Positions 12,330 to 36,114 of a stretch of DNA of 64,000 nucleotides are shown in pieces. Both the position numbers and the translations under genes were made by a program. The stretch comes from Patescibacteria group bacterium (GTDB taxonomy: Bacteria; Patescibacteriota; Minisyncoccia; Portnoybacterales; GWB1-42-6): contig JAKLIA010000001.1 in the NCBI GenBank assembly GCA_022709865.1, forward strand, positions 210,740 to 274,739, in the 5' to 3' direction. The notes under the pieces were generated by a model, which saw only the letters and a list, made by a program, of their open reading frames with translations, was not told where the DNA came from and made no database searches. Every line of letters starts with the position of its first letter. Position 1 is the first letter of the stretch.

Positions 12330-12345
12330 TATTAGGAGCAGAAAA

Positions 12346-13143: not shown

Positions 13144-13158
13144 TATAATGGAAACAAT

Positions 13159-20279: not shown

Positions 20280-22073
20280 ATGTTTTTACAAAAAAGTAGA
20301 CTCTATCTGTTGTATAAGCTATTTCGCCGGGGATTCCGAGGCCTTCGTTGGCAGATCTTAGCGTTAACAGCTTTTGGCATTCTGGGGGGCCTGCTTGAAG
20401 GTGTGGGCATTAATGCCGCAATCCCAATGTTCTCGTTCTTAGTTGGCGGCGTTAACTTAGGGAACGATTTTATCTCGTTGGCAATTCAACAGTTTTTTGA
20501 TTTTTTTAATATCAGATTTAGCTTTCGCTATCTGCTGATTTTTATTTGTTCGTTGTTTATTCTGCGCGCGGTAATCTTATTTGCTTGCAACTATTTTCGC
20601 ATCAAGATCGCGGCTGGCTATGAGGAAGAAACAAGGAATCGTTTATTCAACAAAACCTTGAAGGCTAACTGGCCGTTTTTGCTTCAGCAAAGGCTAGGGT
20701 ATCTTGATACTATTTTGGCAGTCAACATCCAGAACAACAGCTTATTGCTCCGTTATCTAAGCGGGGCGGTTATGACTCTGGGCGGCTTATCCATGTATAT
20801 TTTAGTTGCCTTAAATATTTCTTTTAATATAACTGTGGCAACATTATTGCTTGGCGCTTTGATGATATTTGTTTTTTATCCGTTAGTGCGTAAAACTAAA
20901 TTGATTTCCCAGGAAAAAGAGGCGATGAATAAAGTCGTTGCCCACCATATTAATGAAAACATTTTAGGAATGAAAACTATTAAAGCTATGCGGCTTGGCG
21001 GGGCGGTGGCGGCGGTGGGCAAGGAATACTTTAAAAAATTAAAGAACTTTACAGTAAAAGTCGCCTTTTTCCAGATCTTAACAGATTCATTGATTCAGCC
21101 AATAGGCCTTATTTTTATTTGTTTGGTTTTTGCAATTTCTTATAAATTGCCCGGATTTAATTTTATCGCCTTGGCGGCTGTTCTTTATTTGATCCAGCGG
21201 ATATTCACTTATATCCAACAGTTGCAATCGCATTTGCATACGGTCAGCGAATCTATTCCTTATTTGCAGGGCACGATCGCCTATGAAAATATGATCTCAA
21301 AAAACGAAGAAGCAGACGAAGGGCAGGACGCTTTTGTCTTTAAAAAACAGCTGGAGTTCAAAAATGTTGATTTTAATTATGAAGGCGGTCGAGAAATCCT
21401 GAAAGGATTAAGCTTCTGCCTGAAAAAAGGAGAGCTGCTTGGCTTGATCGGCCCGTCTGGCGCCGGAAAAACCACGGTTGTGGATTTGATTTTGCGCTTG
21501 CTTAACCAAACCGGAGGAGAGATAGAATTAGATGGAAAGAGCATAAATAAAATTAATTTAGCTTCTTGGCGGGAAAGCATTAGCTATATTGCCCAAGATA
21601 TCTATTTAAAAAACGATACAATCGCTGAAAATATTAGGTTCTACGACGAATCAATTACCGACGAACAGGTAGCGGAAGCCGCAAAAATGGCTAATATACA
21701 CCAGTTTGTTAATAGTTGCCCTAAGAAATTCGATACTATCGTTGGTGAACGGGGAGTGCAATTATCGGCCGGACAGCGCCAACGAATTATTATCGCTAGG
21801 GCCTTGGCTCGACAGCCGCAGATTTTAGTTCTAGATGAGGCGACCAGCGCCTTGGACAATGAATCCGAGACTCAAGTCCAGCAAGTTATTGATAATTTAA
21901 AGAATAAAATTACGGTTTTGGTTATCGCTCACCGCCTTTCTACAATAATTAATGCTGATAAACTATTGGTTTTGGATGATGGCAAGATCGTTGAAGAGGG
22001 CAGGCCGCAAGAACTACTTAAGGATGCCAATTCTTATTTTTATAAAGTTTATAATATAAAAAATAATCAGTAG
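20280..22073 (+). CDS. ABC transporter, fused permease-ATPase exporter (MsbA-like)
   Basis: Six N-terminal transmembrane helices, Walker A GPSGAGKTT, signature LSAGQRQRIIIARAL, Walker B ILVLDEATSALD. Confidence 0.85.
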   Translation: MFLQKSRLYLLYKLFRRGFRGLRWQILALTAFGILGGLLEGVGINAAIPMFSFLVGGVNLGNDFISLAIQQFFDFFNIRFSFRYLLIFICSLFILRAVILFACNYFRIKIAAGYEEETRNRLFNKTLKANWPFLLQQRLGYLDTILAVNIQNNSLLLRYLSGAVMTLGGLSMYILVALNISFNITVATLLLGALMIFVFYPLVRKTKLISQEKEAMNKVVAHHINENILGMKTIKAMRLGGAVAAVGKEYFKKLKNFTVKVAFFQILTDSLIQPIGLIFICLVFAISYKLPGFNFIALAAVLYLIQRIFTYIQQLQSHLHTVSESIPYLQGTIAYENMISKNEEADEGQDAFVFKKQLEFKNVDFNYEGGREILKGLSFCLKKGELLGLIGPSGAGKTTVVDLILRLLNQTGGEIELDGKSINKINLASWRESISYIAQDIYLKNDTIAENIRFYDESITDEQVAEAAKMANIHQFVNSCPKKFDTIVGERGVQLSAGQRQRIIIARALARQPQILVLDEATSALDNESETQVQQVIDNLKNKITVLVIAHRLSTIINADKLLVLDDGKIVEEGRPQELLKDANSYFYKVYNIKNNQ

Positions 22074-22077
22074 ATAT

Positions 22078-23592
22078 ATGGATAATTTAAAAGGCAAAAG
22101 AATATTTATTTTTCAGCAAAGGCTTTGGGGGACTAATTTTGGCTATTTTTTAGCTAAAAAACTGCAGGCTGAAGGCTGTCTTTTGGGCGCTTTGACATCA
22201 ACGAAAAGGACGCATGATTTTTTTGTCTCGCAAGCGGAAGTTAGGCATGAGATAATAGTTAGCTTTGACGAGATTCTCGGCAACCCGGAAAAATACTTGG
22301 CCGGAGATGATTTTCCTCTCCAAGAGATTTGCCAGGCCTTGCAAATAGATTCGGTCTGGCCGATAGCGCGAACGGTGCGTGAATATATTCGGTCGTATAA
22401 AGATAAATACGGTTATGGCTTTAAGCAGAATGTTCCTGATGAGACCATAGTTCTTTATATCAAAGCAGTTTATAAATGTTTGAAAAAAGTTTTTTCTGAG
22501 TTTAAGCCCGATATTATTATTGCGCCTAATTTTGTCTCTTTGCACCATATTATGTTCAATCTTTATGCCAAAGCCCAGGGCATTAAGATGATCTCATTTT
22601 TTGGTTGTAAAATAAAAGGAGTTTCCCTTTTCTATTATGATTATTTAAATAGCGAGGGGCCATTTTTTGACAGGGTAGAAGAGCTTTATCGGGGAGAGGC
22701 TGAATCGCAAAATATCGAAAAAGCCAAACAATATATTTCGGGATTTAGAAAAGAGTTTAAGCGCTTAACTTATGCTCCGAAAATTGATAATAAAAAGAAA
22801 TCTTTGCGGCAAATAATTAAGAGTCATTTAGCTCCTTGGGCCAATATTGCTCGCTGGTATTGGCGCCGGCCAGAAAAAGCATGGGAGGTTGTTGGGGTGT
22901 CGCCTGATTTTCGCCCTCCATATTTTATTTTAAGAGACTATATTGCTAGCAAAAGGTATAAGCATTTTGCTGACAACTTTGAGTATTATCCTCTAGATAA
23001 AATTAAAAAATTTATTTATATGCCGTTGCAAGTTCAGCCAGAAATTGCCATTGACGTGGCTGCGCCATTTTTTTCTAATCAATTGGAAGTGGCACGATTA
23101 GTGGCTATGTCTCTGCCCGAAGACTATGTGCTGGTCGTTAGAGATGCTCCTGCCATGGTTGGCCGCCGGACGCCTTCCTATATGGAAAAGCTAGCCAGAA
23201 CGCCTAATGTTAAGCTGGTTGATTATCGGGTTTCAACTCAGGAAGTTCTAGGACGAGCTGATTTAGTTGTAAGCTTTGGCGGCACGACTTTGGCGGAAGC
23301 GGCTTTTTATTCTAAACCTGGGATTCAAGTTGGCGATTTTGGTATAACCTTAAAACTTCCTAATGTCGTTAAACATACCGATATGACGACCTTAGCTTCT
23401 AAAATTAAAGAAGTTTTGAAAGTTAATTTGAATAACCAAGAATATGAGCGGAAGCTAGAAAAGTATGTGGCGGCTAATTACGATGCCGGATATGAAGTTG
23501 ATTTTTTTGATGTTTGGTATGGGCAAGATAAAGAATTAGCCGAATCAGCCTGGCAGATCTATAAAGCCGAGATAGAGAAGCTAACCAGATAA
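22078..23592 (+). CDS. Polysaccharide biosynthesis protein, KpsS/Capsule_synth-like or TagF-like
   Basis: 504 aa soluble protein. The C-terminal GT-B-like region (LVVSFGGTTLAEAAFYSKPGIQVGD) resembles capsule-synthesis and glycerophosphotransferase families. Its start is 4 nt after the ABC exporter stop. Confidence 0.3.
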   Translation: MDNLKGKRIFIFQQRLWGTNFGYFLAKKLQAEGCLLGALTSTKRTHDFFVSQAEVRHEIIVSFDEILGNPEKYLAGDDFPLQEICQALQIDSVWPIARTVREYIRSYKDKYGYGFKQNVPDETIVLYIKAVYKCLKKVFSEFKPDIIIAPNFVSLHHIMFNLYAKAQGIKMISFFGCKIKGVSLFYYDYLNSEGPFFDRVEELYRGEAESQNIEKAKQYISGFRKEFKRLTYAPKIDNKKKSLRQIIKSHLAPWANIARWYWRRPEKAWEVVGVSPDFRPPYFILRDYIASKRYKHFADNFEYYPLDKIKKFIYMPLQVQPEIAIDVAAPFFSNQLEVARLVAMSLPEDYVLVVRDAPAMVGRRTPSYMEKLARTPNVKLVDYRVSTQEVLGRADLVVSFGGTTLAEAAFYSKPGIQVGDFGITLKLPNVVKHTDMTTLASKIKEVLKVNLNNQEYERKLEKYVAANYDAGYEVDFFDVWYGQDKELAESAWQIYKAEIEKLTR

Positions 23593-23606
23593 TCAAAGCC
23601 TCAGAC

Positions 23607-25211
23607 ATGAAGAAGAAAAAAAGAATATTATTAATAATGCCTTCTTTCTGGGATCCGATCTGCCCGCCACAGGGCATCGTTTCTTTGAGGTCATATATAG
23701 AGAAGCTGGGATACGAGGTTTTTATCAGAGACTTTAACACAGACCCTCGGCTGTTTGATCTGCAAAGAAAATATTTTGAGCTTGGCTTAAAATTATTTCC
23801 TCATTGGAAGTTCTTAAATATTTTTAGGAACGGTCCCAGGTATTTTGCCCGGCATCAATTAGCCTGGTTTTTTGGGCGGCAATTGGGCACAAAATATGAA
23901 AAACTAGTGGGGCTAATTTTGAATTTTGACGGCAAAAGCAAATGCACCAAAGGGATGATCAAGCGCTTTGATTCTATCGTTGCCGAAGCCTTTAAGCTAA
24001 CCGAAGCAAAAACAGCGGAATTAGTAGGCCAGATAAAACCCGACATAATCGGCTGCACCATGCTGGAGAGCACTTTCCCCACGGCGTTGGCTATTTTAAA
24101 AACAGCGAAAAAAAATAAACCAAAAATTAAAACTTTACTTGGCGGGCCGGGGCCATTAATGGGTGATAAGATAGAGCATGGAAATCTGCAAAGAATTTTG
24201 GATAAGTGCCCTTGGATTGATACGATTATTTGCGGAGAAGGGGAAATCTTGTTCGAATATTATCTGAAAAAATCTTTCGGCAATAAAAAGATTATAGGGA
24301 TAGAGGATTTGAAAAATATAAAAAAAGCGGCTAGCGTTATGGATCTGCTAGTTGATATTAACAAATTACCAGAATCGAATTTTGAAGGCTTAACGATAAA
24401 AAGATATCTTTGGCTTTCTAGCTTTACTTCTAGGGGTTGTCCGTTCAGATGCGCTTTTTGCTTTGAAAACTCTTTTTGGAAAAGATTTAGGATGAAGAAC
24501 ATTAAAAAAGTGTTGAAAGAATTCAATCATTTATCCGATTCGTACCAAAATAATAAGTTTTATTTGTCGGATTCTTTAGCTAATCCCATAATGAATGACC
24601 TAGCTTTTGGCTTAAAGAATGGCGGCACAAGGTATGAATACGATACATATATCCGAATAACCGATGATTGTTTGGATAATAAAATAGTGAAACGGTGGGC
24701 GGATAGCGGTTTGGCTAGAGCGAGAATCGGCGTTGAATCAACCTCTCCGCGCGTTTTAAAGTTAATGAATAAGAAGATAACTACAGAACAAATAGGAAAA
24801 AGTTTGAATAATTTTTCCCGGAATGGTATTTATACTTCAACTTTATGGATTGCCGGTTTTCCCGGGGAGACAAAGAAAAATTTTTTAGAGTCGGTCGCTT
24901 TTTTGAAAAAAAATTGCCAGAATATTTATCAAGCTGATATCTGGGAGTTTGTTTGTTCTCCAGAGGGATTTTCTATTGCGGAGGAAGGTATCAACCATCA
25001 GGCAAAACTAGCTTATCCTGAAGAATTAGGTAGTATTCTCCCTTTGCGATATTTTGAGCTAGAAGGCTACATTTCTCCGGCGGAACGTTTTGAAAGGATT
25101 AGTCTTTTTGAAAAAGCAAGAATAAGGGCTGGCATCCCAAATCCGTATTCGATCAGCGATTTGTTGCGGGCAAAAGACCGCTGGATTAAGCTTGGCCATA
25201 AACATAATTAA
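23607..25211 (+). CDS. B12-binding radical SAM protein (class B radical SAM), paralog 1
   Basis: N-terminal cobalamin-binding domain (IIGCTMLESTFPTALAIL...LLGGPGP) and a radical SAM CxxxCxxC motif (SRGCPFRCAFC). Nearly identical over about 900 nt to 40772-42385. Confidence 0.75.
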   Translation: MKKKKRILLIMPSFWDPICPPQGIVSLRSYIEKLGYEVFIRDFNTDPRLFDLQRKYFELGLKLFPHWKFLNIFRNGPRYFARHQLAWFFGRQLGTKYEKLVGLILNFDGKSKCTKGMIKRFDSIVAEAFKLTEAKTAELVGQIKPDIIGCTMLESTFPTALAILKTAKKNKPKIKTLLGGPGPLMGDKIEHGNLQRILDKCPWIDTIICGEGEILFEYYLKKSFGNKKIIGIEDLKNIKKAASVMDLLVDINKLPESNFEGLTIKRYLWLSSFTSRGCPFRCAFCFENSFWKRFRMKNIKKVLKEFNHLSDSYQNNKFYLSDSLANPIMNDLAFGLKNGGTRYEYDTYIRITDDCLDNKIVKRWADSGLARARIGVESTSPRVLKLMNKKITTEQIGKSLNNFSRNGIYTSTLWIAGFPGETKKNFLESVAFLKKNCQNIYQADIWEFVCSPEGFSIAEEGINHQAKLAYPEELGSILPLRYFELEGYISPAERFERISLFEKARIRAGIPNPYSISDLLRAKDRWIKLGHKHN

Positions 25212-25216
25212 ATATT

Positions 25217-25654
25217 ATGAAAATAGAAAAGATAAAAAAAGCGAGAAAAATTGAATTTGATAAAGTGGCTGTTGGTGACGAAGTCTTTTTTGAAAAGAAG
25301 ATTGGCAGAAAAGAAATGAAAAAATTCGAAGAACTAACGGGCAATTCAACCCCTTTGCATACCGACCTGAAATTTGCCAAGCAAAAAGGTTTTCGCGGGA
25401 TAGTGGTTTATGGGCTTTTGGCCGCAGCTTATTTTTCGACTCTTTTTGGCATGTTATTGCCCGGAGAAAAGTGTTTGTGTCTAAGCCATAATTTAATTTA
25501 TAAAAAGCCCCTAATTGAAGGAGAAACAATAAAAGTGATGGGGAGGGTTACCCATAAGATCAGCAGCGCCCAGATATTGATCATGAAAACAAGGATTTTT
25601 AATAAAAAAGGGATATTGATCATAGACGGAGAAGCAAAAGTAAGGTTTATTTAA
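25217..25654 (+). CDS. MaoC-like (R)-specific hydratase/dehydratase (hotdog fold)
   Basis: GNSTPLHTDLKFAKQKGFRGIVVYGLL matches the MaoC dehydratase signature. 145 aa. Confidence 0.7.
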   Translation: MKIEKIKKARKIEFDKVAVGDEVFFEKKIGRKEMKKFEELTGNSTPLHTDLKFAKQKGFRGIVVYGLLAAAYFSTLFGMLLPGEKCLCLSHNLIYKKPLIEGETIKVMGRVTHKISSAQILIMKTRIFNKKGILIIDGEAKVRFI

Positions 25655-25667
25655 TGATTTTATTTTT

Positions 25668-26729
25668 ATGAAAATAATCTGCGTAGTTGGCGCCAGGCCA
25701 AACTTTATAAAAATTGCATCGCTTGTAAAAGAAATAAAAAGGCACAAAGAAATAGATTGTGTCTTGGTCCATACGGGCCAGCATTACGACAATTTAATGT
25801 CGGATGTATTTTTTAGGGACCTGCAGATACCTAAGCCGGATATTTTTTTAGGAGTAAGATCTTGCGGCCAGATTGAGCAAATCGCTGAGATAATGACAGC
25901 TTTTGAAGGGGTTTGCCTGGAAGAAAAGCCGGATATGGTTTTGGTTGTTGGTGATGTTAATTCGACTTTAGCGGCGGCCTTGGCAGCCAATAGAAATGGC
26001 ATAAAGGTGGTGCATGTTGAAGCCGGTTTGAGATCTTTTGACCGGCAAATGCCGGAGGAAATAAACAGGATCATTGTTGATCAAATTGCCGATTATTTAT
26101 TCATAACCGAAGAGAGCGCCTATAGGAACTTGATAAAGGAAGGCATAAATAAAAATAAAATATTTTTTGTTGGCAATGTTATGATAGACGCTTTGAAGCA
26201 GTTTTTTAAAAAAGAAACCGGCATTGTTAAAAAAATGGGCTTAAAACCTAAGGATTATTGTTTGATCACAATGCATCGGCCATCAAACGTGGATAGCAAG
26301 GAGCGGCTAATTGAGATTTTTGATATTCTGGATTCTCTTAATGAAAAGATCGTTTGGCCGATTCATCCGCGAACCAAAAAGAATATAGAAAAGTTTAATT
26401 TAAGCGATCGCCTGAAAAAATATACCACTTTAGAGCCGCTGGGCTATTTGGATTTTATGTCTCTTTTAAAAAGATGCAAATTAACTTTAACTGATTCAGG
26501 CGGCATTCAAGAGGAGGCAACTTTTTTGGGAGTTCCTTGTTTAACCATGAGGGAAAATACAGAGAGGCCGATAACAATAACAAAAGGGACGAATTATTTG
26601 GTTGGTTCAAAAAAAGAAATAATAAAGGCTATTTATGCTATTGGCAAAAGGAAAAAATCGATTCCAAAATATTGGGACGGTAAAGCGTCAAAAAGGATTA
26701 TCGATATTTTGAAAAAAAATGAAAATTAG
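25668..26729 (+). CDS. wecB: UDP-N-acetylglucosamine 2-epimerase, non-hydrolysing (WecB/MnaA type)
   Basis: MKIICVVGARPNFIKIASL...HTGQHYD...HVEAGLRSFD is characteristic of the non-hydrolysing 2-epimerase. Confidence 0.85.
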   Translation: MKIICVVGARPNFIKIASLVKEIKRHKEIDCVLVHTGQHYDNLMSDVFFRDLQIPKPDIFLGVRSCGQIEQIAEIMTAFEGVCLEEKPDMVLVVGDVNSTLAAALAANRNGIKVVHVEAGLRSFDRQMPEEINRIIVDQIADYLFITEESAYRNLIKEGINKNKIFFVGNVMIDALKQFFKKETGIVKKMGLKPKDYCLITMHRPSNVDSKERLIEIFDILDSLNEKIVWPIHPRTKKNIEKFNLSDRLKKYTTLEPLGYLDFMSLLKRCKLTLTDSGGIQEEATFLGVPCLTMRENTERPITITKGTNYLVGSKKEIIKAIYAIGKRKKSIPKYWDGKASKRIIDILKKNEN

Positions 26730-27972
26730 AAATATTATTATAGGAACATACGATAAAATAGTCAGGCCGATATTTGATAAAGATCTGGCGGTTATTTTAA
26801 AATTAAAAAACAAGCAATATCCTTTTGAGGCAGAAACTGACGAGGCTCATTTGGTTCGTAGCTTAAAATGGCTAACCCTGGCTAATGAAAAAGTTGGCGG
26901 GCAAGGATTTCCTTCAAAGTTCTCAATTGTGGCAAAATATGGCTTGGGCCAGCCGTATCCGGAAGTGACCGGCTATACACTTTGCACCCTGCTGGCTATA
27001 TTAAGAAATAAGCCCTTGGCAGGATTTGATTATTCTATGATTGAAAAACTAATTAAAAACTCCTGTGATTTTTTAATGAAGATCCAATTTCCTGGCGGCG
27101 CTTTTACGGGCGGCAGCAAGGGAATGGCAAATTTTGGCCAGCCGAGCATCTTTAATACAGGCCAAATTGTTCTCGGTTTAGCCGATGTTTATGAAACGAT
27201 AACGGATTCACAGCAGGAAATCTTGAAAGAAATCAATCCGGAACTTATAAAAAAATCGCTTCTTAGGGCCAGCGAGTTTCTGATGGGAGAAATTGATAGC
27301 GACGGCTCATTTAAAATAGAGCATACTTTTTTAAAATCAAAAAGAGCTTATTATGCCAGAGCCGCTTACGGTCTTTTAAGGGCGGGAATAGTTTTAAAAC
27401 GAGAAGATTTTATTTTAGGATCAAAAAAGTTTTTTGATTATGTCTTAACTCTGCAAGAGGAAAGCGGTTGGATACGCAATTGGGGATTTGAAGACAAGTT
27501 CGCTGTCCTGCATACGATAGCTTATACTTTAAGAGGGTTATCAGAGGCTTATATCTATTTTAAAGATGAAAAATACGGCCAGGCAGTTAAAAAGGGCTTA
27601 GAGTTTTTATTAAGTTGTGGTAAAGATAATTTTTCTTATCCCGATCTTTTGCCGTCTCATTATGATAAAGATAAAAATATCGTTAATGATTTATGCTTGA
27701 CCGGTTTATCCCAGATGGCGATAGTCCTGAAAAAATATGATTCAGTGGTTAAAACAAAAGAATACGAACCTTTATTTGGCGCGATAATTGCGGCAACCAA
27801 AAGGTTTCAAAACAGGGGATTTAAAAATGAATTATTGAACGGGTTGATGCCGGCTTCTTGGCCGATAAATGGCCGTTATAAACCGTATAGTTTTATTGAG
27901 TGGGGAACAAAGTTTTTTATGGATTCAATTCTGTTATCAATGGGGCTAGACTCGCAACAAATCAAAGGATGA
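26719..27972 (+). CDS. Hypothetical protein with possible alpha/alpha-toroid (terpenoid cyclase / prenyltransferase / LanC-like) repeats
   Basis: Repeated Gly/aromatic-rich motifs (GGQGFPSKF, PGGAFTGG, SGWIRNWGFEDKF) spaced about 50-60 aa apart, as in QW/toroid repeats. This is fold-level inference only. Confidence 0.3.
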   Translation: MKIRNIIIGTYDKIVRPIFDKDLAVILKLKNKQYPFEAETDEAHLVRSLKWLTLANEKVGGQGFPSKFSIVAKYGLGQPYPEVTGYTLCTLLAILRNKPLAGFDYSMIEKLIKNSCDFLMKIQFPGGAFTGGSKGMANFGQPSIFNTGQIVLGLADVYETITDSQQEILKEINPELIKKSLLRASEFLMGEIDSDGSFKIEHTFLKSKRAYYARAAYGLLRAGIVLKREDFILGSKKFFDYVLTLQEESGWIRNWGFEDKFAVLHTIAYTLRGLSEAYIYFKDEKYGQAVKKGLEFLLSCGKDNFSYPDLLPSHYDKDKNIVNDLCLTGLSQMAIVLKKYDSVVKTKEYEPLFGAIIAATKRFQNRGFKNELLNGLMPASWPINGRYKPYSFIEWGTKFFMDSILLSMGLDSQQIKG

Positions 27973-27975
27973 TTT

Positions 27976-28356
27976 ATGAAAACAATAACTTTTAAAGATT
28001 TTAGTGTTGGTGCAGACATAGAGAATATTAAACGATTTAGGCGATTAAATAAAAAAACCGATAAGATTTTTTTTAAAAAAATACTGACCGATAAGGAATT
28101 GGCATATTGTTTCATTAGCCATGACCCAGCGCCTCATTTAGCGGGAAGGTTTTCTGCTAAGGAGGCAATTATTAAAGCCCTTGGTGGACTAGGAGAAAAC
28201 GGTTTAGCTTTTAATAAAATGGAGATTTTAAACAATAAAATCGGTGCACCGGAAGTTTTCTTTAAGGAAAAAAAGTTTAAAAAATATAGAATTAAAATAA
28301 CAATTTCCCATACCAAAGACCTGGCACTAGCCATGGCTATTGCCTTAAAGAAGTAA
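27976..28356 (+). CDS. acpS: Holo-[acyl-carrier-protein] synthase (4'-phosphopantetheinyl transferase, AcpS type)
   Basis: VGADIENIKRF...HLAGRFSAKEAIIKALG and the 126-aa size match AcpS. Confidence 0.75.
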   Translation: MKTITFKDFSVGADIENIKRFRRLNKKTDKIFFKKILTDKELAYCFISHDPAPHLAGRFSAKEAIIKALGGLGENGLAFNKMEILNNKIGAPEVFFKEKKFKKYRIKITISHTKDLALAMAIALKK

Positions 28357-28361
28357 TTTAT

Positions 28362-30176
28362 ATGAAAACAGCAAAAAAACAAGAAGAAAAGAAGCCGGCT
28401 TCTTTTATCGAATATCTTGATTTTTATAAAAAAAATCTTAGGGTTTTTGAAGGCGAAAAGAATGAGGGCGTTGAAAAAGAAGTCAGAATTGCTTTTTTAT
28501 CCAGCTTTACAACCAATGGCTTTAAAGAGGTTTTATCGGCTAAATGCCATCAACTTGGCTTGTCTCCAAAAGTTTTTATTGGCGGATATAACCAATATTC
28601 GCAAGAGATATATGGCCAGTCAGGCGAGTTGTACGCGTTTAACCCGCAACTAATTATTTTGTTTATTGATATTAGGGCGATTGCTGGCGAATATTATTTA
28701 TTGCCGTATAGCCGGACAGAAAAGGAAAGGCAGGTTTGGGTTGAGGAAAAGAAAGAGGAAATAATCGCTTTAATTAAAAAAATAAAAGAAAAAAGTTCGG
28801 CCAAGATAGTGTTCCATAATTTTGAAGTTCCTTTTGAAAGCCCTCTTAAGATATTGGAGGTGAAAGAAAAATTCGGCTGGCGTGAAGCAGTAGAAAAACT
28901 TAACGAGAAAATTAGGGAGAGCTTTAAGAAGGATCATCAAGTTTTTGTTTTTGATTATAATAATTTTATTTCAAAAATAGGCAAATCAAATATTTTTAAT
29001 TCAAAACTTTATTATTTGGGCGATATAAAGTTCAATTTGGAATATTTGCCGGAGCTTTGCGAGGAATATATGGGATACGTTAAGCCCTTAAAATCTTTGA
29101 CAAAAAAATGCTTGGTTCTGGACCTGGACAACACTCTTTGGGGAGGAATTATCGGCGAAGACGGGCTTAATGGGATAAAATTAGGGCCGACTCCAGAAGG
29201 CCGGCCGTTTTGGGAGTTTCAAAAATATATATTGTCGCTTCATAATCAAGGAGTTATTTTAGCGATAAATAGCAAAAACAACCCAGCCGACGCCTTGGAG
29301 GTGTTAAGAAAACATCCTTATTCTATTTTGAAAGAAGAACATTTTGCCTCTATCCAAATAGATTGGGATGATAAAGTCGCTAAGATGAAAAAGATTTGCC
29401 AAGAGATAAATATCGGCTTGGATAGCCTGGTTTTTATTGATGATGATAAAGCTAACAGAGAAATGGTCAAAGCTGCTTTGCCCGAAGTTTCGGTTGTGGA
29501 AATGCCAGAAGACCCAGCCGCCTATCTTAAAAAGCTGGAATCGATAACTGATTTTAACCGGCTTGAAATAACAGAAGAGGATAAAAAAAAGGGGAAAATG
29601 TATGGAGAAGAGAGAAAGCGGCTGGAGCTTCAAAAGGCGGCGTCTAATTTAGGCGAATATTTAAAAAGCTTGGAAATCAAAATAACGATAAAAAAAGCAG
29701 ATAAGTTTAATTTGCCGCGGATTGCCCAATTAATTAATAAAACCAATCAATTCAACACAACAACTATCCGTTATTCGGAAGAGGAAGTGGAAAAAATATC
29801 TAAAGATAAAAAATATTGGATTTTGTCGGTGGCGGCTGAAGACCGGTTTGGCGATAACGGAATAGTCGGAGTGGCTATAATTAAAAAGGAAGAGACGAAG
29901 ATATGGGAAATAACTTCTTTTTTATTGAGCTGTCGCGTTATTGGGAAGGAAATTGAAAGGGCAATCCTAGCTTTTATTATGAAAAATGCAAATAAAGCTC
30001 GGGCAAGTTTAGTTGCAGGCAATTTTGTTAAAACAGCTAAAAATGCGCCAGCGGCAGATTTTTTCAAAAAAAACGGGTTTAAACTCGTGGGAAGCGATAA
30101 GGGGCAGGAAAGATGGGAGCGCAAGGCAGATAGCGTTTTATTGCCGCCAAATTTTATTAAAATAAAAGAAAAATAA
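28362..30176 (+). CDS. FkbH-like / HAD-IIIC phosphatase-family protein with a C-terminal GNAT-like domain
   Basis: The central CLVLDLDNTLWGGIIGEDG is the hallmark HAD motif I of FkbH-like domains (glyceryl-ACP forming enzymes). The C-terminal about 150 aa look GNAT-like. About 240 aa at the N-terminus are unassigned. Confidence 0.6.
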   Translation: MKTAKKQEEKKPASFIEYLDFYKKNLRVFEGEKNEGVEKEVRIAFLSSFTTNGFKEVLSAKCHQLGLSPKVFIGGYNQYSQEIYGQSGELYAFNPQLIILFIDIRAIAGEYYLLPYSRTEKERQVWVEEKKEEIIALIKKIKEKSSAKIVFHNFEVPFESPLKILEVKEKFGWREAVEKLNEKIRESFKKDHQVFVFDYNNFISKIGKSNIFNSKLYYLGDIKFNLEYLPELCEEYMGYVKPLKSLTKKCLVLDLDNTLWGGIIGEDGLNGIKLGPTPEGRPFWEFQKYILSLHNQGVILAINSKNNPADALEVLRKHPYSILKEEHFASIQIDWDDKVAKMKKICQEINIGLDSLVFIDDDKANREMVKAALPEVSVVEMPEDPAAYLKKLESITDFNRLEITEEDKKKGKMYGEERKRLELQKAASNLGEYLKSLEIKITIKKADKFNLPRIAQLINKTNQFNTTTIRYSEEEVEKISKDKKYWILSVAAEDRFGDNGIVGVAIIKKEETKIWEITSFLLSCRVIGKEIERAILAFIMKNANKARASLVAGNFVKTAKNAPAADFFKKNGFKLVGSDKGQERWERKADSVLLPPNFIKIKEK

Positions 30177-30177
30177 T

Positions 30178-30411
30178 ATGGAATTAAAAAAAATATTCGC
30201 CAAAGTTATAGGCATTAATGAATCAGGTGTCTCTGGCAGTTTATCTAGAAAGAATACTGTGGAATGGGATTCTATTAACCACCTGCTTTTAGTGAGCGAG
30301 ATAGAAAAAGAATTGAAGATAACTATGACCATGAAAGAGGTGGAGGAAGTAAAAAATTATAAAGAGCTCGATTTGATAGTTAAGAGCCGCAGCCAAAAAA
30401 ATAAAAAATAA
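30178..30411 (+). CDS. Acyl carrier protein
   Basis: 77 aa, with an EWDSINHLLLVSEIE phosphopantetheine-attachment serine context (DS). The start is 2 nt after the FkbH-like stop. Confidence 0.7.
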   Translation: MELKKIFAKVIGINESGVSGSLSRKNTVEWDSINHLLLVSEIEKELKITMTMKEVEEVKNYKELDLIVKSRSQKNKK

Positions 30412-30414
30412 AAG

Positions 30415-31284
30415 ATGATCCTTTATTTGAACGAAAATAAAGCTATTTCTGGTGAAGATTTTTTAGGGGCTTTGCAGCAATTGGGCGTGCAGCAGGGAGA
30501 TGTTTTGTTCGTCCATTCGGATGTTTCGGTTTTTGGCAAATTGGCCACAGAGGGGAAAAACGAGTTGCTAGAAGCATTAGCAGGCGTTTTTAAAAAGGCT
30601 GTCGGGGAAAACGGCACGATAATTATGCCAACTTTTTCATATAGTTTTTATCATGGCAAAGTTTTTGATGTTGAAAAAACGCGGTCGGAAGTAGGTATTT
30701 TAACGGAATATTTCAGAAAACAAGAGGGAGTTATTCGGACGGCTCAACCCAATCACTCTGTGGCTATATTTGGAAAAAAGAAAAACGAGCTGGCAAAAGT
30801 GGGAATAGACTGCTTTGACGGCAACTCTATTTTTGGAAAAATGAGAGAGGCGGGCGGTAAAATAGTTATTTTTGGCGCCCCGTTCCTTTCCTGCACTTTT
30901 ATTCACTCCATAGAGCAGGCCCACGGAGTGCCTTATCGGTATCTAAAAACTTTTTATGGCACAATTATAAATAAAGGAGCTGCTAAAAAAGAGAGAAGCA
31001 CTTTTTATGTGCGCCGTTCTGAAAATAAGATAAAGACAGATCTTTCAAGGCTAGAAAGTTATTTGCTTGAAAATGGCTTTATGAAAGAAACAAAATTAGG
31101 TAATGGGAAAATTATGGTTGTGGATGCAAATACTTTGTTTAGGGAAGGCATGAAGATGCTGGATAAAGATATTAATTTTTTTGTTAGAATTATTCCCGTG
31201 AGCAAGGCAGCTGATATTATTTTTTATTTTAGGCGCTTCTTAGGAAATATAAAAATACAAGTAAAAAACTTTTTAATTAAATAA
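30415..31284 (+). CDS. AAC(3)-family (Antibiotic_NAT fold) N-acyltransferase
   Basis: GDVLFVHSDVSVFGKL...IIMPTFSYSF...HSIEQAHGVPYRY is the aminoglycoside 3-N-acetyltransferase family signature. Here it is embedded in a nonulosonic acid pathway. Confidence 0.6.
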   Translation: MILYLNENKAISGEDFLGALQQLGVQQGDVLFVHSDVSVFGKLATEGKNELLEALAGVFKKAVGENGTIIMPTFSYSFYHGKVFDVEKTRSEVGILTEYFRKQEGVIRTAQPNHSVAIFGKKKNELAKVGIDCFDGNSIFGKMREAGGKIVIFGAPFLSCTFIHSIEQAHGVPYRYLKTFYGTIINKGAAKKERSTFYVRRSENKIKTDLSRLESYLLENGFMKETKLGNGKIMVVDANTLFREGMKMLDKDINFFVRIIPVSKAADIIFYFRRFLGNIKIQVKNFLIK

Positions 31285-31288
31285 AAAT

Positions 31289-32329
31289 ATGAAAAACTTT
31301 ATAAAAATTGGCAAAAGAAAAATTGGGGCGGATTTTGCGCCGTTTGTTATTGCGGAAATTGGCATCAATCATAATGGCAGCATGGCTAAAGCAAAAAAAA
31401 TGATAGACGATGCTTATAAGGCTGGAGCTGAATGCATTAAGTTCCAATGCCATGTGGTTGAAGACGAAATGGTGCCAATAGCCAAAAAAATAATTCCCGG
31501 CCACGCCAAAGAATCTATCTGGGATATTATGAAAAAAGCAGCTTTCAACGAGGCTCAAGAAAGGGAATTAAAAAAATACACGGAAAAATTAGGAATGCTG
31601 TATTTGAGCACGCCTTTTTCCCGGGCTGGCGCTGATCGGTTGCAGTCTATGGGGGTTGAGGCTTTTAAAATTGGCTCGGGAGAGTGCAATAATTATCCTC
31701 TTATTAAGCATATTGCTAGATTCGGAAAGCCAATTATTTTGAGCACCGGCATGAATGATATTAAAGCAATCAGCCGAAGCGTTGGTATTCTGCGCCAGCA
31801 CAAGGTTCCTTTTGCGTTGCTTCACTGCACCTCAATGTATCCGGTGCCTTATAATAAAGTTCGCTTAGGGGCTATTTCTCAGTTGCAGAAAGAGTTTTCT
31901 GATGCGGTAGTTGGGTTAAGTGACCATTCTTTGGGCAATTACACCTGCTATGCAGCAGTGGCGCTGGGAGCTTCGATTCTAGAAAAACATTTTACCTCGT
32001 CTCATAAATGGGAAGGGCCGGATATTGCTTTGTCCATTGATCCTGCTCAGCTTAAAGATTTAGTTTCTGGCTCCAAAGCCGTCTACGAAGCCTTAGGCGG
32101 GCAGAAGGATATTCTAAAAGAAGAAAAGGGGATTATAGATTTTGCTTATGCTTGTGTGATCACAACAAAAGACATAAAAAAAGGAGAATCTTTTACTAAC
32201 AAAAATATTTGGGTTAAGCGGCCGGGGACAGGAGAAATAAAAGCTGTTGAATATGATAGTGTCTTAGGCCGCAAGGCTAGCCAAGATATAAAAAAAGATG
32301 AACAATTAAAATATAAAGAAATAATTTAG
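31289..32329 (+). CDS. neuB: Nonulosonic acid synthase (NeuB/PseI/LegI family: N-acetylneuraminate / pseudaminate / legionaminate synthase)
   Basis: IIAEIGINHNGSMAKAKKMIDDAYKAGAECIKFQ plus a C-terminal SAF domain. Confidence 0.85.
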   Translation: MKNFIKIGKRKIGADFAPFVIAEIGINHNGSMAKAKKMIDDAYKAGAECIKFQCHVVEDEMVPIAKKIIPGHAKESIWDIMKKAAFNEAQERELKKYTEKLGMLYLSTPFSRAGADRLQSMGVEAFKIGSGECNNYPLIKHIARFGKPIILSTGMNDIKAISRSVGILRQHKVPFALLHCTSMYPVPYNKVRLGAISQLQKEFSDAVVGLSDHSLGNYTCYAAVALGASILEKHFTSSHKWEGPDIALSIDPAQLKDLVSGSKAVYEALGGQKDILKEEKGIIDFAYACVITTKDIKKGESFTNKNIWVKRPGTGEIKAVEYDSVLGRKASQDIKKDEQLKYKEII

Positions 32330-32332
32330 AGC

Positions 32333-33493
32333 ATGAAAAACAACAAAAAACGTAAAATCTTATTTATTACCGAGCGGCGGACCGATTACAGCCGCTTGAA
32401 ACCAATAATGGAAGCGGTGCAGAAAAGCGAAAAATTAGAATTGCAGCTTTTGCTTACCGGCATGCATCTTTTGAAAAGCTTTGGCGAAACAAAAAAAACC
32501 GTTGAGGCGGACGGTTTTAAAATTGATGCAGTTTTGCCAATTTTTAAAGAAAACGACAAAGATGACGCTTCATCGATGGTTAAGGGTTTGGGCAGGGCCT
32601 TGTTGGGTATGCCGGATATTTTTAAAAAAATGGAGCCGGATATTCTATTTGCCGGTTTTGACATCGGGGCTAATTTTGCGGCAGCGATCACGGCGATGCA
32701 TTTAAATATCCATGTTGCGCATTTGGAAGGCGGAGAGCGTTCAGGAACGATTGATGAAGTTATTCGCCACGCCATAACAAAGTTTTCCCATATACACTTT
32801 GCTTGTTCAGCCCAAAGCGCTAAGCGTATTATCAAATTAGGCGAGGATAAGCAACATGTTTTTAATGTTGGCGTGCCAAGCATCGAAACGATCAGGAATA
32901 TTAAATACGAAGATAAAATTGATATTTGCCGGAAATATAGATTAGACCCAAGCAAAAAAATAATAATTTTTTTGCAGCATCCCGTTACGACTGAAATTAA
33001 TGAGGTTCAATCCCAAATTAAAAAAAGCGTAGAGGCAATCAAGGCAGTGAATAAAAAACACGAGACGCAATCAATAGCGATCTATTCAAATAATGATGCC
33101 GGCGGCAGAAAAATAGTTTCTTTTTTGAACCAATCAGGGTTAAAAGTTTTTTCCCATATTCTTCACGAAGATTTTTTGCGCTTAATGAAAGTTGCCGATG
33201 TTTTGGTCGGCAATTCTAGCTCGGCTATTCATGAGGCGCCGTCTTTCGGTTTGCCGGCGGTTAATATCGGCAGTCGCCAGCAATTCCGCGAGCGGGGCTG
33301 CAATATAATCGATGCAGGCAATAATCAGCCTCAAATTGTGGTGGCGATAGAAAAGGCGTTATTTGATGAACTGTTCCTTAAAAAGGTAAGGCGCTGCCAG
33401 AATCCCTACTATCAGCCGGATTCAGTTAAAAAAATAATTAAGATCTTAGAAACAATTAAATTGCCGTCAATTCAAAAAGTGATAAAATATTAA
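32333..33493 (+). CDS. neuC: UDP-N-acetylglucosamine 2-epimerase, hydrolysing (NeuC/LegG type)
   Basis: HLEGGERSGTIDEVIRHAITK is the hydrolysing-epimerase signature. Confidence 0.75.
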   Translation: MKNNKKRKILFITERRTDYSRLKPIMEAVQKSEKLELQLLLTGMHLLKSFGETKKTVEADGFKIDAVLPIFKENDKDDASSMVKGLGRALLGMPDIFKKMEPDILFAGFDIGANFAAAITAMHLNIHVAHLEGGERSGTIDEVIRHAITKFSHIHFACSAQSAKRIIKLGEDKQHVFNVGVPSIETIRNIKYEDKIDICRKYRLDPSKKIIIFLQHPVTTEINEVQSQIKKSVEAIKAVNKKHETQSIAIYSNNDAGGRKIVSFLNQSGLKVFSHILHEDFLRLMKVADVLVGNSSSAIHEAPSFGLPAVNIGSRQQFRERGCNIIDAGNNQPQIVVAIEKALFDELFLKKVRRCQNPYYQPDSVKKIIKILETIKLPSIQKVIKY

Positions 33494-33497
33494 AATT

Positions 33498-34364: not shown

Positions 34365-34373
34365 ATAAAAAAT

Positions 34374-35423
34374 ATGTCAAACAAAGAACTGTTAAAAGAG
34401 TTTAAGGATAAAAAAATATTAGTTACCGGAGGAACCGGCTCGATCGGATCGGTTATAATAGAAGAGCTTTTAAAATATCAGCCGCGGCAGATACGCGTTT
34501 TTAGCCGGGACGAGACCAAGCAATTCGAACTTTCACACAGGCTTGGCCAAGGCGCTCCTGTTACTTATCTTATCGGGGATATTAGGGATAAAGACAGGCT
34601 CAATTTAGCTATGGAAGGCATAGATATAGTTTTCCATGCGGCTGCTTTAAAGCATGTTTTAGCCTGCGAGCAAAATCCTTTTGAAGCAGTTAAAACTAAT
34701 GTTAATGGCACACAGAATGTTATTGATTGCGCTTTTGCCAATCAGGTTGATAAAGTTGTTTCTATATCAACAGATAAAGCCACGAACCCGACCAATATTA
34801 TGGGTTGCACGAAGCTGTTGGCTGAAAAATTGCTATTAACCACGTTTTTTTACAAAGGCAAGAAAAAAACAAAGTTTTGCTGTGTGCGCTTCGGCAATGT
34901 TCTTGGAGCAAGGGGTTCGGTGATACCATTATTTGCCAGCCAAATTAAAAAGGGAAAGCAGGTGACTGTTACTGATCCAGATATGACCAGGTTTGTGATG
35001 TCTATTCCTCAGGCTGTTAATTTGGTGTTATGCGCCGCTTCTTTAGTGCAAGACAGGGAAATATTTATTTTAAAAATGCCGGTGGCAACTACCGGTGATA
35101 TTGCCCAAGCAATGATCGAGCTTGGCCAAGAAAAGTTAAAAAATAAAGATAAAATTGATATAAAAATTGTTGGCAAGAAAGACGGAGAGCGATTGCACGA
35201 AAAGCTTTTGACCATAGAAGAATCTGTTCTGGCCATGGAAACAAAGGATATGTTTATTGTGCTGCCCGATATAAAATTAGCGCCACATCTTCCAAACTAT
35301 ACTCCCGTAAAATATCCGGGCGCCAGCAAGGCTAAGGTTATGGAATATAATACGCAGATGCAAGAAAAATTAAGTGTCAAGGAAATAAAGCATTTGCTAG
35401 AAGAAGTTAAGCCGTTTAAATAA
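34374..35423 (+). CDS. UDP-GlcNAc 4,6-dehydratase (PseB/LegB/CapD-like, Polysacc_synt_2)
   Basis: ILVTGGTGSIGS...FHAAALKHV...STDKATNPTNIMGCTKLLAEK is the canonical CapD/PseB signature. Confidence 0.8.
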   Translation: MSNKELLKEFKDKKILVTGGTGSIGSVIIEELLKYQPRQIRVFSRDETKQFELSHRLGQGAPVTYLIGDIRDKDRLNLAMEGIDIVFHAAALKHVLACEQNPFEAVKTNVNGTQNVIDCAFANQVDKVVSISTDKATNPTNIMGCTKLLAEKLLLTTFFYKGKKKTKFCCVRFGNVLGARGSVIPLFASQIKKGKQVTVTDPDMTRFVMSIPQAVNLVLCAASLVQDREIFILKMPVATTGDIAQAMIELGQEKLKNKDKIDIKIVGKKDGERLHEKLLTIEESVLAMETKDMFIVLPDIKLAPHLPNYTPVKYPGASKAKVMEYNTQMQEKLSVKEIKHLLEEVKPFK

Positions 35424-35433
35424 AATAATTTTT

Positions 35434-36114
35434 ATGAAGATTTTAGCAATAATTCCAGCCAGAGGCGGCTCAAAAGGCATTCCGCATAAGAATGTATATC
35501 CTTTAGCGGGCAAGCCCCTTTTGGCATGGACTATAGAGGCGGCAAAATCGGTAAGGCTTATAGATAAAATTGTGGTATCATCGGACGACGATAAGATTTT
35601 AAGCGTGGCAAAAGAATACGGCGCCGAAGCGATTAAAAGGCCGGATGAGATTTCTGGTGATGATTCCCCATTCAGCTCTTTAATTTTTCATGCGCTAGAT
35701 TTTTTAAAAGCAGAGGGAGAATATATGCCGGACATTCTAATTTATCTTCAACCAACTTCTCCTCTTAGGAAAGCAGGGGATATTGATCAGGCGTTAGCCT
35801 TAATGGACGAAGAAGCAGACGGCGTTATAAGCGCCTACGAAGTTGATAATAAATCATTAAAATCATTTATTGTTAATGATGATGGTTTTATGGAGGGGGC
35901 CGTTAATAGTAGCTTCCCCTTTATGAATCGCCAGGATTTGCCAAAGATCTATATGCCTAACGGAGCGATCTATATAATCAAAACAAAATCTTTTTTGAAA
36001 ACCGGAAAATTATTTTCTAAAAAAACAAAGCTTTTTTTAATGGATGAAAGTAAAAGCTTAGATATAGATTCTGTAGAAGACATAAAGAAGGCGGAAGATA
36101 TATTAAGAAAATAA
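35434..36114 (+). CDS. neuA: Acylneuraminate (nonulosonate) cytidylyltransferase
   Basis: ILAIIPARGGSKGIPHKNV...GKPLLAWTIE is the CMP-NeuAc synthetase family signature. Confidence 0.85.
   Translation: MKILAIIPARGGSKGIPHKNVYPLAGKPLLAWTIEAAKSVRLIDKIVVSSDDDKILSVAKEYGAEAIKRPDEISGDDSPFSSLIFHALDFLKAEGEYMPDILIYLQPTSPLRKAGDIDQALALMDEEADGVISAYEVDNKSLKSFIVNDDGFMEGAVNSSFPFMNRQDLPKIYMPNGAIYIIKTKSFLKTGKLFSKKTKLFLMDESKSLDIDSVEDIKKAEDILRK

Follow-up and report, generated by a model that had tools for sequence, protein, structure and literature searches.

The 64,000-nucleotide stretch of contig JAKLIA010000001.1 analyzed here (the window) comes from a Patescibacteria group bacterium, a member of the candidate phyla radiation (CPR), and contains at 27976-31284 consecutive genes for an AcpS-type 4'-phosphopantetheinyl transferase, an FkbH-like protein, a small acyl carrier protein (ACP) and an N-acyltransferase with the AAC(3) fold. 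We give about an even chance to the interpretation that these genes form a self-sufficient, carrier-protein-dependent acyl-donor cassette for glycan N-acylation, and that this cassette feeds the synthesis of a sialic-acid-like (nonulosonic acid) sugar. The donor half of the interpretation is well supported by catalytic residues, gene fusions and co-occurrence in other genomes, and the acceptor half is plausible, with the balance for and against it about level.

In the predicted pathway, AcpS would convert the ACP into its holo form at Ser32, and the FkbH-like enzyme would react with 1,3-bisphosphoglycerate to form a 3-phosphoglyceryl thioester on Cys524. The HAD site (Asp254/Asp256) would strip the phosphate, and the glyceryl unit would move to holo-ACP. 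The AAC(3)-fold enzyme would then move the ACP-bound three-carbon acyl group to a sugar amine, at the step where PseH, LegH and PglD use acetyl-CoA. Because no aminotransferase is encoded in the operon and WecB and a toroid protein accompany the cassette, the amine is predicted to arise by N-deacetylation, followed by re-acylation, of an intermediate at the level of UDP-N-acetylhexosamine (UDP-HexNAc) or of the nonulosonate. NeuC, NeuB and NeuA would carry the N-acyl group into a CMP-activated sialic-acid-like sugar, in which the acyl group would end on N5.

Carrier protein and loading enzyme

The FkbH-like protein aligns with TIGR01686 over profile positions 2-321 of 323 and is made up of an FkbH_N domain, a HAD-IIIC phosphatase domain with the motif DLDNTLWGG at residues 254-262, and a GNAT-like C-terminal domain that contains Cys524. 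Its long FkbH_N architecture matches tetronate-cluster enzymes over residues 42-585, and PDB entry 3slr spans the N-terminal and HAD parts. Residues were compared in an alignment of eight diverse sequences, including ZmaN and a tetronate-type FkbH, for which the reference enzymes were drawn from annotated plasmids. The reference on a B. cereus plasmid, recognized by the K-L-M-N-O-P-Q gene order, is ZmaN of the zwittermicin cluster, and the tetronate-type reference adjoins FabH-like, ACP and E2-like genes. HAD motifs I-IV (DxD, S/T, K, DD) are invariant in this alignment (D254, D256, S304, K338 and D360-D361), as are N462-Q463-x-N465 and S523-C524-R525, and Cys524 is the sole invariant cysteine. 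An earlier annotation of the region made from its letters alone (the sequence-only reading) had proposed this glyceryl-loading module, and the module withstood the check, with its catalytic cysteine and all phosphatase residues kept. In the mechanism published for OzmB, a phosphoglyceryl-S-enzyme intermediate is formed, dephosphorylated, and its acyl unit then transferred to ACP; the invariance of Cys524 and this mechanism together point to Cys524 as the putative catalytic, acyl-accepting residue.

The ACP gene begins 1 nt past the FkbH stop codon. Among 41 FkbH-adjacent ACP homologues W30 and S32 are invariant and D31 is conserved in 95%, and Ser32 is the predicted phosphopantetheine attachment site. 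An AcpS gene is dedicated to the cassette. The CPR group generally lacks fatty-acid synthesis, which would explain why the cassette carries an AcpS of its own.

AAC(3)-fold acyltransferase

The transferase aligns with PF02522 over profile positions 2-231 of 232 and is 36% identical to a homologue in the pse locus of Campylobacter hepaticus. Residues H34, T161, H164, E167 and VPYR172-175 are invariant in its homologues. Aminoglycoside-resistance equivalogs were matched far under their cutoffs for all subtypes, with NF033082 the best (77.5 bits, cutoff 270), and an ordinary aminoglycoside resistance gene was rejected on these scores and on genomic context.

Fusion proteins bear directly on the source of the acyl group. 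The 113 AAC(3)-like homologues include fusions of AAC(3) to MaoC (13), to ACP (two) and to HAD (one), and the ACP-AAC(3) proteins (P0158 and P0143) carry the same WDS-type carrier domain. L017 (2358-3575), P0130, P0135 and P0139 are among the examples of natural fusions; an AAC(3)-methyltransferase fusion was found in L087 (12673-14631), and ACP-GNAT fusions occur, for example, in L022 (11715-13076). Together with the co-occurrence counts given below, the fusions are the strongest evidence that the acyl group would come from a carrier protein and not from acetyl-CoA. A resistance role dependent on acetyl-CoA is disfavored because of the low equivalog scores, the ACP fusions and the loading enzymes encoded in 34 of 36 related loci. 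The hand-off from ACP to N-acyltransferase put forward in the sequence-only reading is backed by the ACP-AAC(3) and MaoC-AAC(3) fusions.

Distribution and gene neighborhoods

Relatives of the FkbH-like protein number at least 8000 at 50-60% identity in metagenomes, mostly in Woesearchaeota, Nanoarchaeota, Omnitrophota and CPR, and at least 597 in species-representative genomes from many phyla. Neighbors were counted within three genes of FkbH after clustering crude gene calls from about 90 loci, 80 of which were scored as FkbH-bearing. They were ACP (38 loci), MaoC (18, plus 7 MaoC-ketoreductase fusions), membrane-bound O-acyltransferase (MBOAT; 18), AcpS (14), adh_short ketoreductase (11), AAC(3), Glyoxalase_4 and NodB-type deacetylase (8 each), hexapeptide transferase (5) and ACP-GNAT fusion (4). 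Judged from these neighborhoods, FkbH-ACP is a general acyl-donor unit of glycan loci that is coupled to four acyltransferase folds. Loci with FkbH-ACP and MBOAT form a second large class (18/80), and in S. meliloti pSymB (L002, 6204-11239) FkbH-ACP-MBOAT adjoins the rkpR/kps capsule export genes; this class suggests O-acylation of an exported polysaccharide with a glycerate-derived unit.

To our knowledge, all characterized FkbH enzymes act in polyketide or tetronate pathways, which is the ground for supposing that the cassette has nothing to do with glycans and makes a small polyketide, tetronate or lipid-like metabolite, or that its ACP carries ordinary fatty acyl chains. We regard this as very improbable. 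A polyketide or tetronate role was rejected on gene content, as neither a ketosynthase nor an acyltransferase domain nor any FabH-like or E2-like tetronate gene was found in the window. Around the cassette extend about 36 kb of genes for glycosyltransferases and sugar-nucleotide enzymes, an undecaprenyl-phosphate sugar transferase gene lies at 45498-46817, and in the 80 genomes the neighbors of FkbH encode glycan enzymes and sugar acyltransferases of four kinds.

Neighbors of the AAC(3)-like gene were counted in 36 metagenomic loci of at least 8 kb. FkbH was present in 24 and an AMP-binding ligase in 10, mostly loci without FkbH, so that one loader or the other was found in 34 of the 36. The other neighbors were AcpS (29), ACP (26), MaoC (22), ketoreductase (12), proteins resembling Cj1295 of Campylobacter jejuni (25), toroid (8), NeuB (14), PseB-like (15) and DegT (17).

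NeuB lies within 10 kb in 8 of the 80 FkbH loci and in 14 of the 36 AAC(3)-like loci, in unrelated phyla. Against the possibility that the module is scattered without linkage to nonulosonic genes, the outcome was divided, as the FkbH-ACP core is indeed scattered over glycan contexts and the NeuB linkage nevertheless recurs in unrelated phyla. The predicted linkage to nonulosonic genes was borne out in unrelated lineages that use more than one acyltransferase fold (L009, L028, L066, L075 and L092, besides the 14 AAC(3)-like loci). Two Saccharibacteria loci have the orders deacetylase-FkbH-ACP-ACP::GNAT-NeuB-NeuC-NeuA (L028) and AAC3-AcpS-FkbH-ACP-MaoC-ketoreductase-PseB-NeuB (L075), and L092 has NeuB-glyoxalase-FkbH-ACP::AAC3-Cj1295-like. 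The isolate Clostridium moutaii carries FliD-flagellin-Maf-Maf-...-FkbH-ACP-MaoC-GNAT-PseF-PseI-...-PseB-PseG, and a Coxiellaceae locus (L066) carries PseB-PseC-PseF-PseG-...-MaoC-radical SAM-FkbH-ACP-FabH-like. The FabH-like (KAS III) gene of the latter is at 12224-13390, 3' of FkbH-ACP.

Glycerate-derived N-acyl nonulosonic acids occur where such genes occur. Campylobacter jejuni NCTC 11168 makes CMP-7-acetamido-5-(2,3-di-O-methylglyceroyl)amino-pseudaminic acid; its Cj1295 is aminopeptidase-like and required for the modified sugar, Cj1296/7 is annotated as a phase-variable 'aminoglycoside N3'-acetyltransferase', Cj1299 as acpP2, and cj1302 is an FkbH-domain gene. C. hepaticus has the order PseB-PseC-Cj1295 orthologue-AAC(3)-AMP-ligase-formyltransferase-75-aa carrier protein. 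Tannerella forsythia makes Pse5Am7Gra, for which the glyceroyl gene 'remains elusive'. The cassette probably explains the unusual N-glyceroyl sugars of pathogens such as Campylobacter; one recent paper labels Cj1296-Cj1310 as uninvolved in flagellar glycosylation. A literature search for FkbH in polysaccharide or nonulosonic contexts gave only a passing mention of cj1302. The novelty claimed in the sequence-only reading holds insofar as no published biochemical characterization was found; the gene association itself is already in the C. jejuni annotation (cj1302, acpP2 and Cj1296/7).

Nonulosonic acid genes and the acceptor sugar

The cassette genes run unbroken into genes for NeuB, NeuC, a short-chain dehydrogenase/reductase (SDR), a PseB-like dehydratase and NeuA. 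The set for legionaminic or pseudaminic acid is incomplete, as dehydratase, NeuC, NeuB and NeuA types are present and the operon is without an aminotransferase and a canonical acetyltransferase. Of the NeuC-NeuB-NeuA set for N-acetylneuraminic acid, NeuC exceeds its equivalog cutoff, NeuB falls just under its own, and NeuA gave only a PseF-like score; the PseB and PseF profiles are likewise matched under their cutoffs (Table 1). PDB relatives of the SDR are UDP-hexose 4-epimerases and reductases. The statement that no acetyltransferase of the GNAT or left-handed-beta-helix type is present holds for nearly all window open reading frames (ORFs) of at least 100 aa: no GNAT or hexapeptide acetyltransferase was found in those scanned, and two ORFs at 43538-45047 were judged only from the annotation of the related locus L093, in which they correspond to pyruvate:ferredoxin oxidoreductase subunits.

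Two classes can be distinguished among loci with the AAC(3)-like gene. In class C, AAC(3) is combined with a Cj1295-like protein, and about half of the loci have NeuB nearby. In class T, the partners of AAC(3) are the toroid protein and WecB, often together with genes resembling dehydrogenases of UDP-N-acetylmannosamine (UDP-ManNAc). By its full gene content and AAC(3) phylogeny the window belongs to class T, and it has no adjacent DUF4910/DUF2172 gene that would place it in class C. Besides the window and L093, class T comprises L004, L084 with its duplicate L085, L089, L099, L100, L102, L108, L123, L137, L147 and L174. WecB homologues 52-56% identical to that of the window flank the cassette in L004, L099, L100, L102, L137 and L147, and in L084 and L174 the flanking genes are of the Epimerase_2 type. 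Toroid and Cj1295-like proteins are nearly mutually exclusive as AAC(3) neighbors in the 36 AAC(3)-like loci (L094-L173) plus L084, L089 and L174; both occur only in L128/L129, with the toroid about 9 kb from AAC(3). This distribution suggests that the two proteins may be functional alternatives. In both classes N-deacetylation would be followed by re-acylation, with the logic of Cj1295 and Cj1296/7, and class T would act at the UDP-HexNAc level, before WecB/WecC or, here, before NeuC/NeuB/NeuA.

The toroid protein has 1049 representative homologues, and 40 homologues match only (alpha/alpha) toroid families. Its AlphaFold model (pLDDT 96) is an (alpha/alpha)6 barrel, for which the best PDB matches by Foldseek are GH88 hydrolases and cellobiose/N-acylglucosamine 2-epimerases (TM about 0.6).

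Locus L093 is a close relative of the window and bears on the linkage to NeuB. It keeps toroid-AcpS-FkbH-ACP-AAC3 at 80-86% amino acid identity and NeuA at 84%, and it also keeps the AAC(3)-NeuB adjacency and the downstream pyruvate:ferredoxin oxidoreductase genes. Its NeuB-NeuC-PseB segment (4733-8000) has no comparably close match to window 31289-35423, the best being about 40% within NeuC, and it is without the SDR of the window. The nonulosonate core looks like it was replaced by recombination between strains.

Several findings weigh against the interpretation that the cassette serves a nonulosonic acid. No NeuB was found in 12 class T loci within the available sequence, which extends as much as 10 kb to each side of the query gene. 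In a neighbor-joining tree of 44 AAC(3)-like proteins class T is monophyletic, with the window and L093 as its basal branch and eleven of these loci as its other members, so by descent the window cassette belongs to a lineage normally found beside genes of the N-acetylmannosaminuronic acid (ManNAcA) type. In loci that lack nonulosonic genes, members of the broader FkbH-ACP family work with MBOAT, GNAT and hexapeptide transferases. The operon contains no aminotransferase, NodB-type deacetylase or Cj1295-like amidohydrolase, and the sole sugar aminotransferase in the window is a DegT protein encoded 25 kb 5' of the cassette, overlapping a genuine Gmd gene. Profile scans, AlphaFold and Foldseek gave the toroid protein only generic barrel matches with no shared catalytic set, and we know of no deacetylase activity in (alpha/alpha)6 toroid proteins. 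The family assignment of the 77-aa ACP stands on its conserved WDS serine and fails on PF00550, where it misses the gathering score by 0.5 bit; the ACP homologues in L086 and L087 do match PF00550. The choice of acyl phosphate, predicted here to be 1,3-bisphosphoglycerate, is likewise a weak point, as is residue 43 of the MaoC-like protein, an asparagine that aligns with the catalytic Asp of 1iq6 (Asp31), 5cpg and 3ir3 (His48 is kept). In C. jejuni 11168 the di-O-methylglyceroyl sugar was detected with the Cj1296/7 tract out of frame, so this strain may be able to make it without the AAC(3) homologue.

The first of these findings lead to an alternative with the same donor chemistry, in which the acceptor is a sugar of the UDP-HexNAc/ManNAc or ManNAcA type that forms a separate glycan residue, and the NeuB adjacency is an accident of a crowded glycan locus. 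We consider it rather unlikely. In its favor, most of the 12 class T loci without NeuB have WecB and several have UDP-ManNAc-dehydrogenase-like genes, the monophyletic class T includes the window enzyme, and NeuC makes WecB redundant for nonulosonate synthesis. Against a purely coincidental linkage to NeuB, the window has no UDP-sugar dehydrogenase, AAC(3) and NeuB are 4 nt apart in one operon, their adjacency is kept in L093 despite its divergent NeuB-NeuC-PseB, and a protein with a nonulosonic-acid-transferase-like domain is encoded at the operon head. The NeuB linkage of AAC(3)-like and FkbH-ACP genes is also repeated in other clades, and class T loci are themselves without an aminotransferase or obvious amine source, which leaves this alternative with the same acceptor problem.

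A further candidate acceptor is GDP-perosamine, or another GDP-4-amino-4,6-dideoxyhexose of that kind, produced by Gmd and DegT, which could supply the amine and have no acyltransferase of their own nearby. Gmd exceeds its equivalog cutoff, no sugar aminotransferase other than DegT is encoded in the window, and the window scans gave no GNAT, hexapeptide or formyl transferase that could cap the amine. The rfbK-O genes of Vibrio cholerae O1 reportedly provide a precedent for ACP-dependent N-acylation of perosamine. The pair is, however, 25 kb and about 20 genes away from the cassette, and DegT-family matches near related cassettes are inconsistent, so we judge this acceptor improbable. The window yielded no second DegT, no deacetylase, no UDP-sugar dehydrogenase and nothing of the GFO type, and a tblastn search of the window found no Cj1295-like (DUF4910/DUF2172) homologue.

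Identity of the acyl group

For the cassette as a donor to the nonulosonic acid pathway, N-glyceroyl is the simplest prediction for the transferred group, because the ACP adjoins AAC(3) without an in-line dehydratase or ketoreductase. It is possible that the glyceroyl group is O- or C-methylated or otherwise tailored by the B12-radical SAM, MaoC and methyltransferase genes.

The closest solved relative of the MaoC-like protein is PhaJ (1iq6; E 2e-17). Most cassette MaoC homologues carry SGDxxPxH, that is, keep the Asp, and the window protein shares no more than 26-31% identity with the in-line class T MaoCs. Its gene sits five genes 5' of AAC(3), beside the B12-radical SAM gene. Elsewhere, many colinear FkbH-ACP-MaoC-(ketoreductase)-AAC(3) cassettes suggest by their gene order that glyceryl-ACP could be dehydrated to pyruvoyl-ACP and reduced to lactoyl-ACP.

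This leads to the proposal that the transferred group is not glyceroyl, either because the ACP-bound unit is converted (to pyruvoyl by MaoC, to lactoyl by reduction, or by C-methylation by the radical SAM enzyme) or because another acyl phosphate is loaded. FkbH-ACP-MaoC is a conserved triad, the order MaoC, ketoreductase, AAC(3) occurs in at least eight loci, MaoC-ketoreductase and MaoC-AAC(3) fusions are common, and a B12-radical SAM gene adjoins MaoC here as well as in L066 and L071. For the lactate starter of bryostatin a logic of dehydratase, ketoreductase, FkbH and ACP has reportedly been proposed; the literature searched gave no paper on that route. In the window, though, MaoC does not lie in line between ACP and AAC(3) and has Asn43 in place of the catalytic Asp, and no adh_short-type ketoreductase was found in scans of the module and the NeuB-NeuA genes. 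The one chemically known product with a homologous gene set, 2,3-di-O-methylglyceroyl, retains both oxygens. A group other than glyceroyl is somewhat unlikely in our estimate.

Operon organization and surrounding genes

Fifteen plus-strand ORFs run from 20280 to 36114 with spacings of -11 to +14 nt (Table 1). The seven genes from MaoC to AAC(3), which the sequence-only reading placed in tandem directly 5' of NeuB, were confirmed in coordinates, strand and order, with spacings of -11 to +13 nt. Hidden Markov models confirmed the families proposed for MaoC, WecB, AcpS, FkbH and the AAC(3) fold, and the toroid assignment was confirmed by homologues and AlphaFold. For the downstream order NeuB-NeuC-PseB-like-NeuA, the four genes were present as described, and the 288-aa SDR between NeuC and the PseB-like gene had been omitted. 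The operon itself begins 5' of the module described earlier, with the genes at 20280, 22078 and 23607. Stop-to-start spacing is mostly 1-14 nt, WecB and toroid overlap by 11 nt, and the 25 nt 5' of each start from MaoC to NeuA (25191-35433) are AT-rich with no obvious Shine-Dalgarno motif.

Table 1 Genes of the operon and the Gmd-DegT pair, with profile scores in bits and cutoffs in parentheses
Feature	Coordinates	Strand	Profile matches and remarks
ABC exporter, membrane and ATPase domains; first gene of operon	20280..22073	+	PF00664, PF00005; 4 nt to next gene
504-aa protein, weak BFO_1060-family match; candidate glycosyltransferase for the product	22078..23592	+	NF046086
B12-binding radical SAM enzyme, methyltransferase-like; directly 5' of MaoC	23607..25211	+	PF02310, PF04055
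MaoC-like hotdog protein, relative of (R)-specific enoyl-CoA hydratase	25217..25654	+	PF01575 35.1 (27)
Non-hydrolyzing UDP-GlcNAc 2-epimerase, WecB type	25668..26729	+	TIGR00236 335 (210)
(alpha/alpha)6 toroid protein, 417 aa	26719..27972	+	only weak Pec_lyase match
AcpS-type 4'-phosphopantetheinyl transferase	27976..28356	+	TIGR00516 76 (59.8); PF01648 66 (25)
Long-form FkbH-like protein, 604 aa	28362..30176	+	TIGR01686 312.4 (146.65); FkbH_N
ACP, 77 aa	30178..30411	+	PF00550 20.3 (20.8)
AAC(3)-fold N-acyltransferase	30415..31284	+	PF02522 141 (25)
NeuB-family nonulosonic acid synthase	31289..32329	+	PF03102, SAF; TIGR03569 388 (399.65)
NeuC-type hydrolyzing UDP-HexNAc 2-epimerase	32333..33493	+	TIGR03568 374 (236)
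Extended-SDR sugar-nucleotide epimerase/reductase, 288 aa	33498..34364	+	PF01370
PseB/FnlA-like UDP-GlcNAc 4,6-dehydratase	34374..35423	+	PF02719 351; TIGR03589 325 (407.75)
CMP-nonulosonic acid synthetase, NeuA/PseF-like	35434..36114	+	PF02348; TIGR03584 151 (205.7)
GDP-mannose 4,6-dehydratase (Gmd) and overlapping DegT aminotransferase	3830..5915	+	Gmd TIGR01472 456 (415); DegT best LegC family 328 (420)

The 504-aa protein scores 39 bits against NF046086 (E 3.8e-10), far under the 200-bit cutoff, with no Pfam match and nothing significant among solved structures; the BFO_1060 family is named for T. forsythia transferases of Leg/Pse derivatives. The best NCBIfam matches of the B12-radical SAM protein include C- and P-methyltransferase families, all under cutoff, and the MaoC-radical SAM-FkbH arrangement recurs in L066 and L071. 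The glycan locus and its edges hold three B12-radical SAM paralogues (40-570, cut by the window start; 23607-25211; and 40772-42385), all resembling C- or P-methyltransferases and all under every equivalog cutoff.

Beside Gmd-DegT, at 1356-8476, are genes for three PMT_2-family membrane glycosyltransferases (ArnT/protein-O-mannosyltransferase-like) and a GT2-GtrA fusion; this gene set suggests that, in a CPR bacterium, lipid-linked sugar transfer takes place outside the membrane. Just 3' of the glycan operon, the gene at 37178-40696 encodes a protein of 1172 aa that combines a lamin-tail domain with PQQ-like beta-propeller repeats and may be a surface protein and a glycosylation target. A gene cluster at 50273-52931 encodes a pyruvoyl-dependent arginine decarboxylase together with proteins of the deoxyhypusine-synthase-like and arginase families and constitutes a polyamine module, unusual in a bacterium.

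Wider significance

How phages, antibodies and host lectins recognize flagella, S-layers and capsules is decided by the N-acyl groups of their sialic-acid-like sugars, and the enzymes that install N-acyl groups beyond acetyl and acetimidoyl are largely unknown. As a proposal held tentatively, at somewhat less than even confidence, AAC(3)-fold transferases with a carrier protein, AcpS and a loader would constitute a general, previously unrecognized N-acyl remodeling system of surface amino sugars, in which an amidohydrolase-type partner (Cj1295-like or toroid) frees the amine and an ACP-borne acyl group replaces acetate. The loader would be either FkbH, supplying three-carbon units from glycolysis, or an AMP-ligase. 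Such a system would explain nonulosonic acids and hexosamines with N-glyceroyl, di-O-methylglyceroyl and probably lactoyl-type groups in bacteria and archaea, including CPR and DPANN organisms otherwise without ACP-based metabolism, in which ACP/AcpS chemistry would be present purely for the tailoring of surface glycans. The components belong to known families and their association is visible in Campylobacter annotation; the pathway is uncharacterized and very widespread. The cassette offers a testable route from a glycolytic intermediate to an N-acyl decoration, and with four small soluble proteins its reconstitution in vitro is feasible. A possible use is the making of N-acyl-modified sialic acid analogues.

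Comparison with known systems

The FkbH enzymes of polyketide pathways, including OzmB, ZmaN and the tetronate enzymes, share with the window protein the HAD-IIIC domain and C-terminal cysteine, the HAD motifs, the SCR cysteine motif and an adjacent small ACP, at 28-31% identity. Their partners are methoxymalonyl-ACP dehydrogenases and an O-methyltransferase, or FabH/E2-like proteins, whereas those in the window are AAC(3) and sugar-nucleotide genes; the polyketide unit enters a polyketide chain, and the unit in the window is predicted to become an amide on a sugar.

PseH, LegH and PglD are predicted to share a pathway position with the window enzyme, an N-acyltransferase beside NeuB, NeuC, PseB and NeuA. 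They are GNAT or left-handed-beta-helix enzymes that use acetyl-CoA, in contrast to the AAC(3) fold and predicted acyl-ACP donor found here. The AAC(3) enzymes, YokD and FrbF have the same PF02522 fold, and the T-x-x-H-x-x-E residues align with AAC(3)-IIIb; unlike the resistance enzymes, the clade of the window enzyme is encoded with ACP loaders (34/36 loci) and is sometimes fused to ACP.

In the LpxC/LpxD system a UDP-amino sugar is N-deacetylated and then re-acylated from acyl-ACP. The same deacetylate and re-acylate logic is proposed here, with the deacetylation predicted from gene content, but the folds are unrelated and the LpxD acyl group is a long 3-hydroxy fatty acid. The MBOAT loci of S. 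meliloti pSymB have an FkbH-ACP pair (37% identity) in a polysaccharide locus; their acyltransferase is membrane-bound and implies extracytoplasmic O-acylation, as in Dlt/AlgI, and not cytoplasmic N-acylation.

The Campylobacter loci differ in having a Cj1295-type partner and PseC where the window has the toroid protein and WecB, and C. hepaticus has an AMP-ligase loader instead of FkbH. Of these Campylobacter genes only Cj1295 has been tested. Like the window, they bring together, within a nonulosonic acid locus, genes for a protein of the AAC(3) fold and a small carrier protein with a gene that has an FkbH domain.

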